Below, piece by piece: positions 42,094-56,459 of a DNA stretch of 64,000 nt; the first letter of the stretch is position 1, and the number at the start of each line of letters is the position of its first letter. Below the pieces are notes generated by a model that was not told where the DNA came from, made no database searches, and saw nothing but the letters and a program-made list of their open reading frames with translations. The stretch comes from Lachnospiraceae bacterium (GTDB lineage: Bacteria > Bacillota > Clostridia > Lachnospirales > Lachnospiraceae): positions 105,501 to 169,500 of the forward strand of contig SVDM01000004.1 of assembly GCA_015058015.1 (NCBI GenBank). The letters are read 5' to 3'. A program made the position numbers and the translations under genes.

Positions 42094-44220
42094 TTGAGAT
42101 TACTTGACAGAGTTTTTAATGGTGCAACAACCATTTACGAACAAACAGTAAAAGCTGTTGACGAAGCAATTGCAAAATACGGTGCAGATCAGGCAGTTTC
42201 ACTTCCCGACACAGCATTTGCTCTTCCCTGCTACTATGCAGTAACAGGTGTTAAAGTTACAACACTTGGAGAGATGAAAGAAGCTTGTGAATTCCTTAAG
42301 AATTCCAACACAAGAGAGCAGCGTCTTGCTGATGGTTTCACATCAGGTATCGCTACAGCAATCGGTGCAGAGTTCACCGAGGCAATCAAATATATTGAAG
42401 GCAATCCTTACGAAGAGCCAATCGTAGCTCACTTCTCAGATGCTATGGTTCGTGAGCTCGGACTTCCCCTGGTTACAGAGGATATCCCCGGTGTTGCAGT
42501 ATTCATCGGTGAGGCTCCTTCAACACAGGAACTTTGCGATTTAATTAAACAGTATCAGTCACAGGGTATCTTCGTTGCACTTGTTGGTAAGTGTATCGAC
42601 CAGGCTGTAGAAGGAAATGCTAAGTTAGGATTCAACGTACGTTGTACACCTCTCGGATATCACATCGAGTCAGTAGTACATATCGTATCTGTTGCTCTAA
42701 GAGCAGGTCTTATCTTCGGTAACATTACACCGGGACACAACGAAGAACTTAAAGCATACACAATGAAGAGAGTTAAGGCATTCGTTAATGCTTACGCTCC
42801 TGTAGATGATGTAACAGTTGCATTTGGTGCAGGCGCAATCGCTTACGGTTTCCCTGTTATCTCTAACGATACCAATGACCTTAAGCCGGTTCCTAAGAGC
42901 ATCGTTATCCAGCCGGATACAACTAAGTTCAATGCTACATCAATCGAGGCAAGAGATGTCAGAGTTAAGATTTCTAACGTTGATATTCCTGTACCTTACG
43001 GCTCAGCTTTCGAGGGTGAGATTATCCGTAAGGGTGATATGAAAATCGAAGTTGATGGTTCCAGAATGGACTGCTTCGAGCTTGTTCAGTCCAAACCTCT
43101 TGCAGAAGTTGAAGACCACAAGATTGAAGTATTCGGAGATGACTTCGACAAATATGAAGACGGAACAAAGATTTCTATGGCTATCATCGCTGAAGTTGCC
43201 GGTAAGAGCATGCAGTCAGACTTCGAGTCAGTTATGGAAAGAAAGTTCCATGCATTTATCAACTGCGCTGAAGGTATCATGCATACAGGACAGCGTGATA
43301 TGATTCGTATCCGTGTAAGCAAAGATGCTTTCAATGAAGGATTCAGAGCTAAACACTTCGGTGAAATCCTTTACGCTAAGTTAAAGAGCGAGTACGATGC
43401 AGTTGTTGACAAATGTCAGATTAAGATTTACATCGGTGAGGAGACAACGAGACTTCGTAACGAACTTGCTACTCCTACCTTTGATCACAGAGATGAGAGA
43501 CTTGGTTCTCTTACAGATGAGAGCGTTGACGAATTCTACACATGTATTCTTTGTCAGGCATTCTCACCCAGCCATGTATGTATCGTAACACCTGAGAGAC
43601 TTGGACTTTGCGGTGCTGTTTCATGGTTAGATGCTAAGGCAACACATGAGCTTGATCCTAACGGACCTTGCCAGATCGTTAAGAAAGAACACGTTATCGA
43701 CGAGAGAGTTGGACGTATCGAAGAAGTTAACGAGGCAGTTAAGAAGTACTCACAGGGTGCTCTTGAAGAAGTTACACTTTACTCAATCATGGAAGATCCT
43801 ATGACATCATGCGGATGTTTCGAGTGTATCTGTGGTATCGAGCCTATGTCAAACGGTGTTGTTATCGTTAACCGTGAGCATACAGGAATCACACCTGTTG
43901 GTATGACATTCTCAGAGCTCGCAGCTATGACCGGTGGTGGAGTTCAGACTCCCGGATTCATGGGACATGGTAAGCATTTCATCGCTTCTAAGAAGTTCAT
44001 GAAGGCTGAAGGCGGAATCCAGAGAATCGTTTGGTTACCCAAGGCTCTTAAGGAGCAGGTAGCTGACAAGCTTAACGCTACAGCAAAAGAACTTTACGGA
44101 ATCGACAACTTCACAGACATGATCGCTGATGAGACAATCGTTGAGGGCGATCCTGAAGCATTAATGAACTTCTTAACAGAGAAGAATCATCCTGCTTTAA
44201 GCTTAGAGCCGATGATGTAA
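42094..44220 (+). CDS. acsB: Acetyl-CoA synthase subunit AcsB, copy 1
   Basis: TTG start 7 nt after AGGAGG. 708 aa. The A-cluster region has CILCQAFSPSHVC, LGLCGAVSW and SCGCFEC. Confidence 0.95.
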   Translation: MRLLDRVFNGATTIYEQTVKAVDEAIAKYGADQAVSLPDTAFALPCYYAVTGVKVTTLGEMKEACEFLKNSNTREQRLADGFTSGIATAIGAEFTEAIKYIEGNPYEEPIVAHFSDAMVRELGLPLVTEDIPGVAVFIGEAPSTQELCDLIKQYQSQGIFVALVGKCIDQAVEGNAKLGFNVRCTPLGYHIESVVHIVSVALRAGLIFGNITPGHNEELKAYTMKRVKAFVNAYAPVDDVTVAFGAGAIAYGFPVISNDTNDLKPVPKSIVIQPDTTKFNATSIEARDVRVKISNVDIPVPYGSAFEGEIIRKGDMKIEVDGSRMDCFELVQSKPLAEVEDHKIEVFGDDFDKYEDGTKISMAIIAEVAGKSMQSDFESVMERKFHAFINCAEGIMHTGQRDMIRIRVSKDAFNEGFRAKHFGEILYAKLKSEYDAVVDKCQIKIYIGEETTRLRNELATPTFDHRDERLGSLTDESVDEFYTCILCQAFSPSHVCIVTPERLGLCGAVSWLDAKATHELDPNGPCQIVKKEHVIDERVGRIEEVNEAVKKYSQGALEEVTLYSIMEDPMTSCGCFECICGIEPMSNGVVIVNREHTGITPVGMTFSELAAMTGGGVQTPGFMGHGKHFIASKKFMKAEGGIQRIVWLPKALKEQVADKLNATAKELYGIDNFTDMIADETIVEGDPEALMNFLTEKNHPALSLEPMM

Positions 44221-44243
44221 TTCAATATTATTTAATTAATATA

Positions 44244-44276
44244 CATAAGCCTCGCACAAAATGTGCGAGGCTTATG
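44244..44276 (+). terminator. Perfect 15-bp hairpin after acsB copy 1 (terminator-like, no U-tract)
   Basis: cataagcctcgcaca-aaa-tgtgcgaggcttatg, followed by cccttaattg. Confidence 0.45.
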
Positions 44277-44485
44277 CCCTTAATTGTTATGTAAACTATT
44301 ACATGGACTATTATGCAAGTAATACAAAAACAGAAAGATTGTTAAAAAATTATCCTTGTTGAAAAGTAACATATCATTCGAATTCATTAAAACGTATAAT
44401 GTTGTTAACACTGGGTTTTCCCGACAATAATGCATGGGCAGACTCTGTTAAAAAATATATATACTTATACTGGAGGTAGGTTTTA

Positions 44486-46615
44486 ATGACACTTTATGAA
44501 AGAATTTTTGCAGGTTCAGATGCAGTCTATGGATTGACCTGCGGAGCAATCGATGATGCCATCGCCAAATATGGCGCTGACAAGGCAATTTCATTCCCCG
44601 AAACAGCTTATTGCCTTCCCTGTTACTACGCAGTTACAGGACAGAAGATTAAGACTCTTGCAGAATTAAAGCAGGGATGTGAGACATTAAAGTCTCTTAA
44701 TTCCGCTGAGACAAGAGAAGCCAACCCCTTACTCTCAGGTGTAGCTACAGCTCTTGGTGCAGAGTTCTTGGAAGCATTGAAGTATATTGACGGTTCAACC
44801 CCCTATGCAGAACCCTATTATGGTCATTTACCCGATGCTATTATTCGTGAGCTGGGAGTACCTCTTGTAACGGGAGATATTCCCGGAGTTGCTGTTATTA
44901 TCGGAGAAGCACCCACAGCACAGGAAGGCGTAGATCTTATTAAGAGTTATCAGGCACAGGGTATCCTTGTTACTCTTGTGGGCAAGATTGTTGAGCAGGC
45001 ACAGAGTCTTAACTACAATATGGGATACGGCGTAAGAGTTGTTCCCTTGGGAACTGACATCACATCAGTAATCCATGTGGTTTCAGTTGCTTTAAGAGCA
45101 GCCCTTATCTTTGGTAATGTGACACCCGGAGATGCAGCCGGTCTTATGAAGTACACAGCAGAAAGAGTACCTGCATTTGTTAATGCATTTAAGCCTATTG
45201 ATGATGTTGTTCTTTCAGCAGGAGCAGGCGCTATTGCCCTTGGATTCCCGGTAATCACCAACGAAACAGAGAATGTTACAGAGGTTCCCAAGGCACTTCT
45301 TTCACAGCCTGACGTATCAAAGTTTAATCAGTTATCACTTGAAACAAGAGAAATCAAAATCAAGATTACCAAGATTGATATTCCCGTTGCTTATGCATCA
45401 GCATTTGAAGGCGAGATAATAAGAAAAGCCGATATGAAGATTGAGGCAGACGGATCAAGAGTCGATTGCTTCGAGCTTGTACAGGCAAAAGGTCTTGACG
45501 AGATTGAAGATCATAAGATTGAGGTTATCGGCAAAGACATTGATGAGTTTGAAGACGGAGAGAAGATCCAGATGGCTCTTATCGCTGAAGTCGCAGGTAA
45601 ATCAATGCAGACTGACTTTGAGTCTGTTATGGAAAGAAAATTCCATGCATTCATCAACTGCATCGAAGGCGTAATGCATACAGGACAGCGTGATATGATA
45701 CGTATCCGTGTAAGCAAAGATGCTTTTAATGCAGGTTTTCGAGCAAAACACTTTGGTGAAGTTCTTTATGCTAAGTTAAAGAGCGAATACGAAGCAGTAG
45801 TAGACAAATGTCAGATTAAGATCATAACTGATCCTGACAAATGTAGCGATCTTCGTCATAACCTTGCTATTCCCACATTTGATCATAGAGACGAAAGACT
45901 CGGCTCCATGACTGATGAGAGTGTAGACGAATTCTATACATGTATTCTTTGCCAAGCATTCTCACCAAGCCACGTATGTATCATCACACCAGAAAGACTC
46001 GGTCTTTGCGGTGCTGTTTCATGGCTTGATGCCAAGGCTACCAATGAGCTTGATCCCAACGGACCTTGCCAGATTGTTAAGAAAGAGCATGTAATTGATG
46101 AGAGAGTAGGAAGATATGAAGAAGTAGATGAAGCTGTTAAGAAGTATTCTCAGGGTGCATTAGAGCATGTTACACTCTACTCTATTATGGAAGACCCCAT
46201 GACATCCTGCGGATGTTTCGAGTGTATCTGCGGTATCGAGCCTATGTCAAATGGCGTAGTTATCGTTAACCGTGAGCATACCGGTGTTACACCTATCGGT
46301 ATGACCTTCTCAGAACTTGCTTCCATGACCGGCGGTGGAGTTCAGACTCCGGGATTTATGGGACACGGAAAGCATTTCATTGCTTCCAAGAAGTTTATGA
46401 AGGCAGAAGGCGGAATCGAAAGAATAGTATGGCTTCCCAAGGCATTAAAGGAGCAGATAGCTGACAAGCTTAACGCTACAGCCAAGGATTTATATGGAAT
46501 TGACAACTTCACAGATATGGTAGCTGACGAGACCATTGCAGAAGATGCAGAAACTCTGATGAACTTCTTAACAGAGAAGAATCATCCTGCATTAAAGTTA
46601 GAACCCATGATGTAA
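44486..46615 (+). CDS. acsB: Acetyl-CoA synthase subunit AcsB, copy 2 (tandem paralogue)
   Basis: 709 aa with a ggagg RBS. It has the same A-cluster motifs as copy 1. The N-terminal ~300 aa are clearly more diverged than the rest. Confidence 0.95.
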   Translation: MTLYERIFAGSDAVYGLTCGAIDDAIAKYGADKAISFPETAYCLPCYYAVTGQKIKTLAELKQGCETLKSLNSAETREANPLLSGVATALGAEFLEALKYIDGSTPYAEPYYGHLPDAIIRELGVPLVTGDIPGVAVIIGEAPTAQEGVDLIKSYQAQGILVTLVGKIVEQAQSLNYNMGYGVRVVPLGTDITSVIHVVSVALRAALIFGNVTPGDAAGLMKYTAERVPAFVNAFKPIDDVVLSAGAGAIALGFPVITNETENVTEVPKALLSQPDVSKFNQLSLETREIKIKITKIDIPVAYASAFEGEIIRKADMKIEADGSRVDCFELVQAKGLDEIEDHKIEVIGKDIDEFEDGEKIQMALIAEVAGKSMQTDFESVMERKFHAFINCIEGVMHTGQRDMIRIRVSKDAFNAGFRAKHFGEVLYAKLKSEYEAVVDKCQIKIITDPDKCSDLRHNLAIPTFDHRDERLGSMTDESVDEFYTCILCQAFSPSHVCIITPERLGLCGAVSWLDAKATNELDPNGPCQIVKKEHVIDERVGRYEEVDEAVKKYSQGALEHVTLYSIMEDPMTSCGCFECICGIEPMSNGVVIVNREHTGVTPIGMTFSELASMTGGGVQTPGFMGHGKHFIASKKFMKAEGGIERIVWLPKALKEQIADKLNATAKDLYGIDNFTDMVADETIAEDAETLMNFLTEKNHPALKLEPMM

Positions 46616-46620
46616 ATGAT

Positions 46621-46846
46621 ATAGACTCTCAAAGTCACCCGGCTCGTGCTTGCACGGAAGCCGGAGTGACCTTGAGAGGCTAACAAATATGAGCATGCAG
46701 CCCGATAGGGCGGAATGCGAATATTTGTAGAAACGCAAGAGCTGCGAAGCGGCGAGCGTTTCGTATATCATTTAGAAATGAAAGCGGAATGCGAATATTT
46801 GTAGAAACGCAAGAGCTGCGAAGCGGCGAGCGTTTCGTATATCATT
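46621..46846 (+). repeat. Unclassified structured intergenic element, locus A: long hairpin, conserved linker, then a hairpin module duplicated in tandem
   Basis: Hairpin 46626-46678 has a CUUG apical loop. The 40-nt linker 46689-46728 is 36/40 identical to 55431-55470. A 63-nt unit is repeated exactly at 46710-46772 and 46784-46846. Confidence 0.5.
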
Positions 46847-46963: not shown

Positions 46964-46992
46964 TTGACATGCCCGTCAATTCTGTGTATAAT
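46964..46992 (+). promoter_or_regulatory. Consensus sigma-A promoter for acsD-acsC-acsE
   Basis: TTGACA (46964-46969), 17 nt spacer, TATAAT (46987-46992). The -35 lies within TTGACatgcccGTCAA. Confidence 0.65.
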
Positions 46993-54848: not shown

Positions 54849-55355
54849 ATGACAACGGAGCACAAACATGAGCATGGACATGAGCATGAGCATGAACACG
54901 GTCACGACCATGGACATGTACACAGCCACGAACATTCCCATTACCACGAGCATAGTCATGAACATGAACACGATCACGGACATTCACATAGCCATGAGGA
55001 GATGTGTGATCACAGCCATGGAGAGGGTGAGGCACATACACATGTATTAGAGGATGGTACAATTATTACCCATACTCATCACGGACATCACCATTCAAAG
55101 GACCATATCAAGGCTGTATCCAACAGATTGGCGAGAGCTATCGGTCATCTTGAGTCCGTTAAGAGAATGGTTGAGGATGACAGAGATTGCTCAGAAGTAC
55201 TTATACAGCTGGCCGCTGTTAAGTCGGCAATTAATAATACAGGTAAGGTTATTCTTCAGGAGCATATTAAACATTGCGTTATTGATGCGGTGGAGCATGA
55301 TGATGATGAATCTCTTGAAGAATTATACAAGGCAATAGATAAGTTTATGAAGTGA
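54849..55355 (+). CDS. CsoR/RcnR/InrS-family metal-sensing repressor (DUF156 core) with a ~80-residue His-rich N-terminal extension
   Basis: 168 aa. Residues 1-82 are dominated by HEH/HGH/HSH repeats. The core NRLARAIGHLESVKRMVEDDRDCSEVLIQLAAVKSAINNTGKVILQEHIKHC has Cys114, His139 and Cys143 (spacing C-25-H-4-C). Confidence 0.8.
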   Translation: MTTEHKHEHGHEHEHEHGHDHGHVHSHEHSHYHEHSHEHEHDHGHSHSHEEMCDHSHGEGEAHTHVLEDGTIITHTHHGHHHSKDHIKAVSNRLARAIGHLESVKRMVEDDRDCSEVLIQLAAVKSAINNTGKVILQEHIKHCVIDAVEHDDDESLEELYKAIDKFMK

Positions 55356-55361
55356 GCGATA

Positions 55362-55520
55362 TGGGGACGAAAGGTCTTACAGCGATTGTGCTTGCACAAA
55401 GAGATGAAAGACTTTTCGGGCCTAACGTACATGAGCATGTAGCCCGATAGGGCGGAATGTGAATGTATGTCGAATCGTGAGAGTTGTATGCAACGGAACG
55501 ATTCGAAGTATCGCGATAGG
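55362..55520 (+). repeat. Unclassified structured intergenic element, locus B (same family as 46621-46846)
   Basis: Outer stem cgaaaggtctt / aagacttttcg. Apical tgtg-CTTG-caca. The conserved linker 55431-55470 is 36/40 identical to locus A. 3' hairpin tcgaatcg ... cgattcga with inner gttg-tatg-caac. Confidence 0.5.
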
Positions 55521-55559: not shown

Positions 55560-55877
55560 ATGTGCGAAGGCAATAGAATTACCAGCAACTGTGAGGCGGC
55601 AGGCCATGACTGCAGTCATTGCGCAGACAGCGACGGTGCAGGTGGATGTGCACATTCAACCAATGATGCTCCGGCTCAAAGAACCATGGAAGATTACCTG
55701 GACCTTACTTATAAGCAGAATCAGGTAATAGCGCTTAAACTTGATGCATATGCCAAGGACCTTCGTAAAGCAGGAAGGAACGATGTGGCAGATCAGTTAA
55801 CCAGAGCCATTCCTGAGTTCGAAAAGGGGAATATGTATATTAATCTTGCAAAGTCAATGTTGCAGGAGAGATTTTAG
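55560..55877 (+). CDS. Small Cys/His-rich putative metal-binding protein
   Basis: ATG 55560 lies 7-8 nt after aaggagg; the track ORF start at 55467 lies inside the structured element and has no RBS. The N-terminus is MCEGNRITSNCEAAGHDCSHCADSDGAGGCAH. The C-terminal helical part resembles that of the next protein. Confidence 0.55.
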   Translation: MCEGNRITSNCEAAGHDCSHCADSDGAGGCAHSTNDAPAQRTMEDYLDLTYKQNQVIALKLDAYAKDLRKAGRNDVADQLTRAIPEFEKGNMYINLAKSMLQERF

Positions 55878-55928: not shown

Positions 55929-56459
55929 ATGAGCGAGCACAATCACGACCATGAATGCTGCCATGAGCATTCACACGAACACACACATGAGCACGGACAT
56001 TGTCACGAGCATACACATGAGCACGGACATACCCATGATCATGAGCATACCCACGATCATGAACACCTTCATACACATGAGCATACACATGCAGATGGAA
56101 CAACACATGAGCACGGACATGTACATCATCACACCCATGAGCACACAGGTGACCATGATCATGTAGATGCAGGACATGCACATACACATGACGGTGAACA
56201 TGGACATGACCATGAGCACGGACATCCACATACACATGATCATTCTCATGGAGAGAAGAAGGATTCTAATGTGGCGCTTCTTGCTTATATGTTAGATCAT
56301 AATGAGCACCATGCCGAAGAGCTGGTTGGAGTAGCTGACAAGTTGAAAGAAGCAGGATTCGACGTTCCCGCGGGCGAAATAATGGAAGGCGTTGAGTTCT
56401 TTAAGCAGGGCAATGCAAAGCTTGCAAAGGCTTTGGAAGTAATAAAAGCGCACAACTAA
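55929..56459 (+). CDS. Histidine-rich putative nickel/cobalt-binding protein (His-rich N-terminus plus helical C-terminal domain)
   Basis: 176 aa with an aaggagg RBS. About 110 residues of HEH/HTH/HDH repeats including a CC and a further C, then a non-repetitive helical domain (LLAYMLDHNEHHAEELVGVADKLKEAG...GNAKLAKALEVIK). Confidence 0.7.
   Translation: MSEHNHDHECCHEHSHEHTHEHGHCHEHTHEHGHTHDHEHTHDHEHLHTHEHTHADGTTHEHGHVHHHTHEHTGDHDHVDAGHAHTHDGEHGHDHEHGHPHTHDHSHGEKKDSNVALLAYMLDHNEHHAEELVGVADKLKEAGFDVPAGEIMEGVEFFKQGNAKLAKALEVIKAHN

Follow-up and report, generated by a model that had tools for sequence, protein, structure and literature searches.

Clostridiales-1 RNA copies beside acsB2 and a metal repressor gene in a Lachnospiraceae genome: fold, gene-end position and MITE descent

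Two structured elements in a 64,000-nucleotide stretch of a Lachnospiraceae genome (contig SVDM01000004.1, positions 105,501 to 169,500 of the forward strand, hereafter the window), one downstream of acsB2 (locus A) and the other downstream of a CsoR/RcnR-type repressor gene (locus B), belong to the Clostridiales-1 RNA family (Rfam RF01699), which is catalogued and already known and for which no function has been assigned. Clostridiales-1 is a repeat with four stems that is dispersed and strand-specific and occurs in gut Lachnospiraceae, and our analysis adds context to its description from 2010, namely the anchoring of copies at stop codons, their retention at orthologous sites, an extra 3' half at locus A and the descent from a MITE.

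Identity and fold of loci A and B

The assignment to RF01699 is based on full-length matches in cmscan, which reached 101.7 bits (E 7e-22, model positions 1-166 of 166) for locus A at 46616-46771 and 99.9 bits, again over model positions 1-166 of 166, for locus B at 55357-55513, with a curated gathering score of 48 bits for the family. At both loci no other Rfam family came near its threshold and the riboswitch families, including the metal-responsive ones, gave no match even at E<=10. An earlier note on this DNA knew of no corresponding riboswitch, the NiCo/czcD motif included. The same note had called the element unclassified, a label that has to be replaced by RF01699 in view of scores of about 100 bits. 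The copies in the window share with the family the four-stem architecture, the conserved loop and junction nucleotides and the host group (gut Clostridiales/Lachnospiraceae), and nothing sets them apart from it. The motif was described by Weinberg et al. (2010; Genome Biol 11:R31, PMC2864571), who found significant covariation and judged it to be probably RNA, and who scored it as not cis-regulatory and "not a switch". Rfam classes the family as 'Gene; sRNA', and the papers we found that name the motif assign no function to it.

All genes and elements of loci A and B discussed here are located on the plus strand of the window. Locus A lies directly 3' of the stop codon of acsB2 (44486-46615; Pfam PF19436, PF03598 and PF18537), which encodes the beta subunit of ACS/CODH. 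In the RNAfold prediction, the stop codon UAA of acsB2 (46613-46615) is itself part of the 5' arm of the closing stem P1 (46613-46623), an arm that pairs with 46764-46774 to give 11 bp in both the MFE and the centroid structure. The remaining stems, which RNAfold and the RF01699 model agree on, are P2 (46626-46678), an extended, imperfectly paired hairpin whose CUUG tetraloop is enclosed by CGUG/CACG, P3 (46683-46728), a AUGAGCAUG-AGC..GAUA..GCGGAAUGCGAAU stem with purine-rich internal loops, and P4 (46730-46762), with GAAACGC...GCGUUUC around an inner hairpin at 46741-46753. Locus B begins 2 nt past the stop codon of the gene for the His-rich repressor (54849-55355; Pfam PF02583), with 46 nt between its 3' end and the following start codon, and its RNAfold helices are P1 (55356-55362 with 55508-55514), P2 (55363-55423), P3 (55425-55470) and P4 (55471-55505). 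Both loci have the same four-stem structure and differ by compensatory changes, and at both of them P1 and the three hairpins appear independently in the MFE and centroid predictions and match the structure line of RF01699. The predicted folds are far more stable than those of shuffled sequences, with an MFE of -81.6 kcal/mol (z -10.5) for locus A and of -69.3 kcal/mol (z -7.9) for locus B and with 0 of 200 shuffles as good in either case.

The three parts of locus A that had been recognized from the letters alone, a long imperfect hairpin, a 40-nt linker and a terminal GAAACGC hairpin, are all present at their positions, and the reading as a structured, RNA-type element holds, as the stems covary and the loops are conserved. 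Of the linker, which had been described as conserved and single-stranded, the conservation is confirmed (36 of 40 positions are identical between 46689-46728 and 55431-55470), but the sequence is not single-stranded and makes up most of stem P3, the most conserved part of the whole family. The closing stem P1 had been overlooked, and it is this stem that makes locus A a four-way junction. Nucleotides that are conserved in unpaired or apical positions are found at both loci as well: GCUUGC at the apex of P2, AUGAG...GCGGAAUxCGAAU in P3 and the GGGAG/CGGAG loop of P4 all correspond to columns with at least 90% conservation in an alignment of 36 copies. Further downstream of locus A, a consensus promoter (TTGACA-17-TATAAT, 46964-46992, 12 of 12 consensus positions) precedes a cdhD-like gene, and its TTGACAT/TATAAT elements are kept in the ortholog of the sister species. 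Due to this separate promoter on its 3' side, locus A belongs to the end of the transcription unit of acsB2, i.e. to its 3' UTR, and is not a leader of the downstream gene.

The stretch 46621-46846 had been regarded as one element, which turned out to be too long. A repeat search revealed that in the assembled sequence its last part, 46784-46846, duplicates the 3' half of locus A exactly, comprising the 3' strand of P3, P4 and the 3' arm of P1, with 100% identity over 63 nt to 46710-46772. A spacer of 11 nt, TAGAAATGAAA, separates the two. The arrangement differs from a simple tandem duplication, with unlike 11-nt sequences on the 3' side of each 63-nt copy (TAGAAATGAAA versus ATTAAAAACTT). 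The extra half is absent from the orthologous locus in the sister species, where a copy downstream of acsB1 carries an analogous, diverged extra 3' half that starts at the same point in P3. Furthermore, a short repeat of the 5' end of the element, CGATAGGGAACG, follows locus B, and downstream of the copy in the trpE leader the 5' part recurs. Taking these several partial second copies together with the tandem copies, we regard partial and tandem copies as a trait of the family. A search of metagenomes for strain variants of the 3' junction of locus A (GCGAGCGTTTCGTATATCATT) gave 0 matches.

Gene context, stop codons and conservation of the fold

In the 2.57-Mb assembly of this genome (G000) we found ten matches to RF01699, nine of them above the cut-off. 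Besides locus A, between acsB2 and the cdhD-like gene, and locus B, between the repressor gene and genes for small Cys/His-rich proteins, copies are located at an SPFH/zinc-ribbon gene pair (copy C16), between cheR and a convergent RNase-H-like gene, between the genes for RNase R and SmpB, between those for ribosomal proteins S8 and L6, and between those for GroEL and IMP dehydrogenase. Two weaker and shorter variants are found between a T-box leader and trpE or pheS, and the tenth copy (C7) is in antisense orientation, 6 nt upstream of the 5' end of the 16S rRNA and downstream of a tRNA gene. Nine of the ten are co-oriented with local transcription. The pairwise identity among the copies ranges from 25 to 72%, so that none of them is recent. 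A promoter-like box of its own was found at none of the copies in this genome. The terminator test gave weak consensus matches only, on P4 with the tail TATCATTTAG, and an intrinsic or SPRITE-like terminator was rejected, as copies are situated inside operons that need read-through (rpsH-rplF, rnr-smpB).

In this genus the copies are anchored at stop codons. Seven of the eight strong copies in this genome and all five copies in the sister species (G001) have their start at -9 to +2 nt relative to the stop of an upstream gene in the same orientation. Under a simple null model that allows starts anywhere between genes and on both strands, the expectation is 0.044 per copy, which gives P about 2e-9 for seven out of eight. 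In four copies of this genome (at the SPFH gene, cheR and the genes for RNase R and S8) the first bases of the element are the gene's own stop codon, supplied by TGA, TAA or TAG within the TGATA(A/T)TAG at the 5' end of the element. In four operonic cases of this genome the next start codon follows 23-46 nt past the element; there RNA polymerase must read through and these copies cannot be terminators. In other genera the anchoring is weaker, with about 5 of 17 copies in the relative G004, and many copies are located 5-7 nt after TATAAT-like boxes or just after the T-runs of terminators, a placement that fits a preference for A/T-rich targets. It is therefore possible that the anchoring reflects the choice of A/T-rich targets in combination with purifying selection and not a function.

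The proximity of both copies in the window to genes related to nickel had led to the suggestion of a metal-responsive or Ni-enzyme-linked RNA, that is, a cis-regulatory RNA responding to Ni/Co or serving acs and nickel-handling genes. Two of the ten copies are indeed located beside acsB2, which encodes a subunit of a Ni enzyme, and beside the gene of a CsoR/RcnR-type metal repressor that is followed by His/Cys-rich proteins; the eight other copies, however, flank unrelated housekeeping genes. Among 41 related genomes seven contain acsB, those with the highest numbers of the element (40 and 17 copies) lack it, and outside this genus no RF01699 copy adjoins acsB. Moreover, locus A follows its gene and precedes a separate consensus promoter, no riboswitch model matches at E<=10, and the motif has been scored as "not a switch" (Weinberg et al., 2010; PMC2864571). 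The NiCo (czcD) riboswitch resembles the element only in that two copies here neighbor metal-related genes; it differs in its fold, in the location of locus A 3' of its gene and in that most Clostridiales-1 copies are beside non-metal genes. We regard a metal-linked regulator as extremely improbable and as close to refuted, and a false lead is thereby removed, since the acs and nickel clusters are not under the control of a shared new RNA switch. The earlier note had named a confident Rfam match and many copies irrespective of gene context as findings that would speak against its interpretation, and both were obtained; a lack of covariation, which it had named as well, was not observed, as covariation is present.

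We also compared this genome with the sister species. Orthologous copies are present in G001 at locus A, at locus B and at the SPFH locus. An additional copy in G001 directly follows acsB1, and the corresponding position in G000 is occupied by a hairpin of 15-16 bp at 44243-44277; conversely, after cheR G000 has the element and G001 a different, G+C-rich hairpin. What is left in the sister species between rnr and smpB are the initial ~13 nt of the element and a P4-like fragment, and between rpsH and rplF just the initial 14 nt. Since these remnants look like deletions, most of the insertions seem to predate the split of the two species. Clean empty sites in G001 were obtained at none of the three loci cheR, rnr-smpB and rpsH-rplF, and no RF01699 match was found near the smpB and rpsH sites in 24 relatives of other genera. 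That the element is missing or reduced to a remnant at three sites of G001 indicates that its loss is tolerated.

Where the element was retained, its fold was retained with it. The three orthologous pairs have diverged by 26-38%, and the adjoining genes by 43-62% at their four-fold sites. Between G000 and G001 we counted 22 two-sided compensatory changes (6 at locus A, 10 at locus B and 6 at C16) together with 8 one-sided changes that preserve pairing, and all pairs of the shared structure remain intact; these counts use RNAalifold consensus pairs, which favor pairs that hold in both sequences, and the compensatory count is therefore generous. Across 36 copies from 12 genomes, two-sided compensatory changes are present at 26 of 27 RNAalifold consensus pairs. 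In each of the 36 copies the fold of the sense strand is more stable than that of the antisense strand, with a mean difference of 9.5 kcal/mol, and this in combination with the co-orientation of nine of the ten copies suggests that it is the transcribed strand, i.e. RNA, which is under constraint. A GCAU/AUGC helix in P3 that is common to loci A and B and absent from both orthologs is derived, and a part of the covariation in P3 may thus be gene conversion between copies. Such conversion would also account for the near-identical "linker" in copies that otherwise differ.

MITE units in relatives and core-only copies in this genus

The number of copies in 24 genomes of the same bacterial family ranges from 0 to 40, and some of the relatives contain tandem arrays with units that overlap by ~8 nt, or copies at the ends of contigs. 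In the relatives G004, G008, G010 and G019 the Rfam motif represents the left ~165 nt of a unit of 183-196 bp, the right end of which is an inverted copy of the first ~18 nt (TGATRCCAGGGTCAAAAG, or TGAGCCAAGGGACAAATG in a second subfamily). Perfect, A/T-rich target duplications of 5 bp flank 6 of 11 units that bear these terminal inverted repeats (TATAA, TTATA, TGAAA, TAATA, TTATA and TTTAA), and at two more of the 11 the duplication matches at 4 of 5 positions. Units from two different genera are identical at 174 of 196 positions. Inverted repeats and 5-bp duplications are hallmarks of MITEs, and the Clostridiales-1 fold is the core of a MITE in these relatives. Dispersal in the manner of a MITE is evident as well, with many copies and a presence or absence that differs between related genomes. 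We found no paper on MITEs of Lachnospiraceae.

The copies of G000 and G001 lack an outer 3' inverted repeat, and those of G000 have only the P1 stem of 7-11 bp. Locus A is flanked by TA on both sides, a palindromic sequence that could equally extend P1, and no target duplication was found at the other copies of G000. A TA target duplication of the IS630/mariner type was considered for core-only copies, since many copies have TA at their flanks, but it could not be proven and was rejected, given that TA is its own complement and would lengthen P1 just as well; the near-identical G004 copies L051 and L055 have no TA on the 5' side. Regarding a helper, the G000 assembly contains no DDE_3 (PF13358) or DDE_Tnp_1 (PF01609) transposases. 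A search for an autonomous partner of the G004 subfamily gave nine matches to its 3' end, which were all MITE copies, and none of ten DDE_Tnp_1 loci in G004, G006, G008 and G019 has matching ends. A faint end match with 4 mismatches (L086) was rejected, as it is part of an insertion sequence with unrelated ends. The genus of G000 and G001 hence keeps only old, diverged, core-only descendants of the MITE, for which neither an outer 3' repeat nor a helper transposase was found.

Possible roles and comparison with known repeats

Taken together, we lean towards the view that the copies in this genus are co-transcribed, self-closing RNA modules of 3' UTRs and intercistronic regions, which descend from a MITE and have a generic role in cis. 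Judging from their position, the copies would be transcribed within ordinary mRNAs, in the 3' UTR or between cistrons, since element and stop codon are too close for a terminator to fit in between, and they would then form the tail or spacer of the upstream mRNA. In such a transcript P1 would draw both flanks together and pack the insert into a compact four-way junction, and selection would maintain this fold at fixed sites. The element might cap the upstream cistron against 3'-to-5' decay and/or tune translation near the site of termination, with transcription presumably continuing into the next gene, and its role would be generic and in cis rather than that of a sensor specific to acs or nickel genes. 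The exchange between the element and a plain hairpin at two orthologous sites (acsB1 and cheR) fits a structural role at gene ends. Several observations count against an mRNA module, namely the antisense copy C7, the three sites of G001 at which the element is lost or a remnant, the weaker anchoring in other genera and the failure to find an autonomous partner.

It is less probable, yet to be taken seriously, that the copies are selfish or neutral relics only, i.e. defunct MITE remnants that have no role for the host. The conserved fold would then go back to a past need of transposition, such as the recognition of folded single-stranded DNA or of the ends, or to gene conversion, and the anchoring to an A/T-rich (TNNNA-like) target and to a TGA-TA(A/T)-TAG start that is harmless within the last codons of a gene. 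The MITE hallmarks in relatives, the patchy copy number of 0-40, the lost or remnant copies in the sister species, the single antisense copy and the derived P3 haplotype common to loci A and B, which suggests conversion, are all in line with relics, and so is a 5' end that gives stops in two of three frames and provides the gene's stop codon in four copies of G000. On the other hand, the three orthologous copies have kept their whole fold through many two-sided changes at a four-fold-site divergence of 43-62%, and selection at the level of the element cannot act on copies that are immobile, as the lack of a detectable helper transposase suggests for these. The higher stability of the sense strand in 36 of 36 copies and the co-orientation of nine of the ten moreover argue for a constraint at the level of RNA and not of double-stranded DNA.

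A trans-acting sRNA or protein-binding RNA, for which the junction of ~155 nt would be cut from host mRNAs or transcribed from promoter-like boxes of the kind found in relatives, to act elsewhere, seems quite improbable to us. One could think of a protein that binds the repeated GGA-containing internal loops (CGGAAU, GGGAG, CGGAG), and the high conservation of unpaired nucleotides across genera, the start of several G004 copies 5-7 nt after a TATAAT box, the classification as 'Gene; sRNA' in Rfam and the judgement as not cis-regulatory (Weinberg et al., 2010; PMC2864571) would agree with an RNA of this kind. Against it stand the lack of a promoter-like box at the copies of this genome, the start of the strong copies inside or at the stop codons of upstream genes, and stems P1, P2 and P4 that differ greatly between copies with 25-72% identity.

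Coming back to a generic module in cis, a more specific version is conceivable, which we consider doubtful: the Clostridiales-1 fold might have been domesticated in this genus as a gene-end device that may couple termination on the upstream gene to the fate of the mRNA. With the stop codon in or against P1, each terminating ribosome would have to melt the junction. This could lead to REP-like stalling with turnover by tmRNA and RNase R, or to protection from 3' exonucleases, and the downstream ribosome-binding site could come to lie next to the terminating ribosome. If this were true, it would be the first function for an orphan and very abundant RNA motif of gut bacteria; few orphan RNA motifs of the human gut are as abundant as Clostridiales-1. 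The MITE core in relatives, the immobile copies here that lack the outer repeat, and the anchoring at stop codons with a fold kept between species thus frame a testable question, namely whether the RNA fold of a transposon was recruited as a module for general use at gene ends or between cistrons.

Known repeats offer two points of comparison. Correia elements of Neisseria, ERIC/IRU of enterobacteria and RUP, BOX and SPRITE of Streptococcus pneumoniae are co-transcribed MITEs that fold as RNA (Croucher et al., 2011, PMC3049150; review PMC10969869). Like these, Clostridiales-1 is short, non-coding and multi-copy, is located in intergenic regions or inside operons, occurs in tandem or nested copies and has a stable RNA fold, and the terminal inverted repeats and target duplications are seen in the forms present in relatives. 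In contrast, its interior is a conserved four-way junction that covaries across genera and not just a long inverted-repeat hairpin, the copies of this genome have no outer repeat, and no parent insertion sequence was found. The position at gene ends is shared with SPRITE, which has a U-tract terminator that the Clostridiales-1 copies lack.

The second comparison is with the REP/BIME sequences of Proteobacteria, which are unrelated in sequence and fold and much shorter (about 35 nt for a REP versus 155 nt for Clostridiales-1), and no RAYT-type transposase is involved in the case of Clostridiales-1. Liang, Rudd and Deutscher are said to have described in 2015 (Mol Cell) that REPs of E. coli within 15 nt of a stop codon lower the translation of the upstream gene, reportedly through ribosome stalling and trans-translation. 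Common to REP/BIME and Clostridiales-1 are a stable structure at or just after stop codons, the occurrence inside operons and the sense orientation, and the alternation of Clostridiales-1 with plain hairpins at orthologous sites adds to this likeness. The cis effects that may be proposed for both would also be similar, concerning mRNA decay and translation in the vicinity of the termination site.

Gene ends and promoter in the acs region

The tandem acsB paralogues of the window (acsB1, 42094-44220; acsB2, 44486-46615) share 75% identity at the protein level, their DNA identity reaches up to 85% at the 3' ends, and both are kept in the sister species (G001). Between them lies a perfect hairpin of 15-16 bp without a U-tract (44243-44277), and the corresponding position in the sister species is occupied by a copy of the Clostridiales-1 RNA repeat with a diverged extra 3' half (G001:C2:52925-53145). 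A comparison of the elements revealed that the one 3' of acsB2 in the window is closer to the acsB1-downstream element of the sister species than to its own ortholog, which suggests an exchange between the two acsB gene ends.

Further downstream, a sigma-70-type promoter with the perfect consensus TTGACA-17-TATAAT was found at 46964-46992, 130 nt ahead of the cdhD-like gene, and its boxes TTGACAT and TATAAT are conserved in G001. With this promoter between them, acsB2 and the acs genes further downstream form separate transcription units.

His-rich genes flanking locus B

Two very His-rich coding regions (54849-55355 and 55929-56459), which show up as 16 overlapping CAT/CAC-rich repeat copies, are located around the Clostridiales-1 copy at locus B. 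In the first one, the His-rich stretch lies within the N-terminal part of a repressor of the CsoR/RcnR type (PF02583). The second encodes a His-rich 176-aa protein without a Pfam match, and the Cys/His-rich 105-aa ORF between both genes (55560-55877) also has no match in Pfam.

Clostridiales-1 copies next to other genes

The copy downstream of GroEL (C5:16789-16949, L008:1493-1653) is devoid of stem P4 and has a closing stem P1 of 16 bp, which is lengthened by 8 bp through pairing of the last GroEL codons (ATGATGTA) with the 3' flank (TACATCAT). Both acsB1 and acsB2 terminate with the same ATGATGTAA, a sequence similar to the usual Clostridiales-1 5' end, ATGATATAG.

Only one copy in this genome is oriented against the direction of local transcription (C7:173627-173783, L005:1501-1657, minus strand, 96.9 bits). 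Situated at a contig end, this antisense copy is separated by 6 nt from the 5' end of the 16S rRNA gene that follows, and a tRNA gene lies about 240 nt upstream of the copy. Through this copy, the pre-rRNA leader would carry the reverse complement of the Clostridiales-1 fold.

Short variants of about 124 nt with weaker scores and 72% identity to each other are present in the leaders of trpE (L009:1225-1625, 50.3 bits) and pheS (L010:1258-1624, 42.6 bits). Both are positioned 19-30 nt 3' of T-box leaders and ahead of the start codons; a direct repeat of the first ~42 nt of the trpE-leader copy stands 3' of that copy.

Mobile form in two genera

Two MITE-form copies from different genera, L011 (G010:C1:108921-109116) and L049 (G004:C32:22554-22748), are identical at 174 of 196 positions, and each has its own 5-bp flanking repeat (TATAA and CACCA/CGCCA, respectively). 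The similarity across genera and the separate flanking repeats suggest that the mobile Clostridiales-1 form has been active recently or has spread horizontally.
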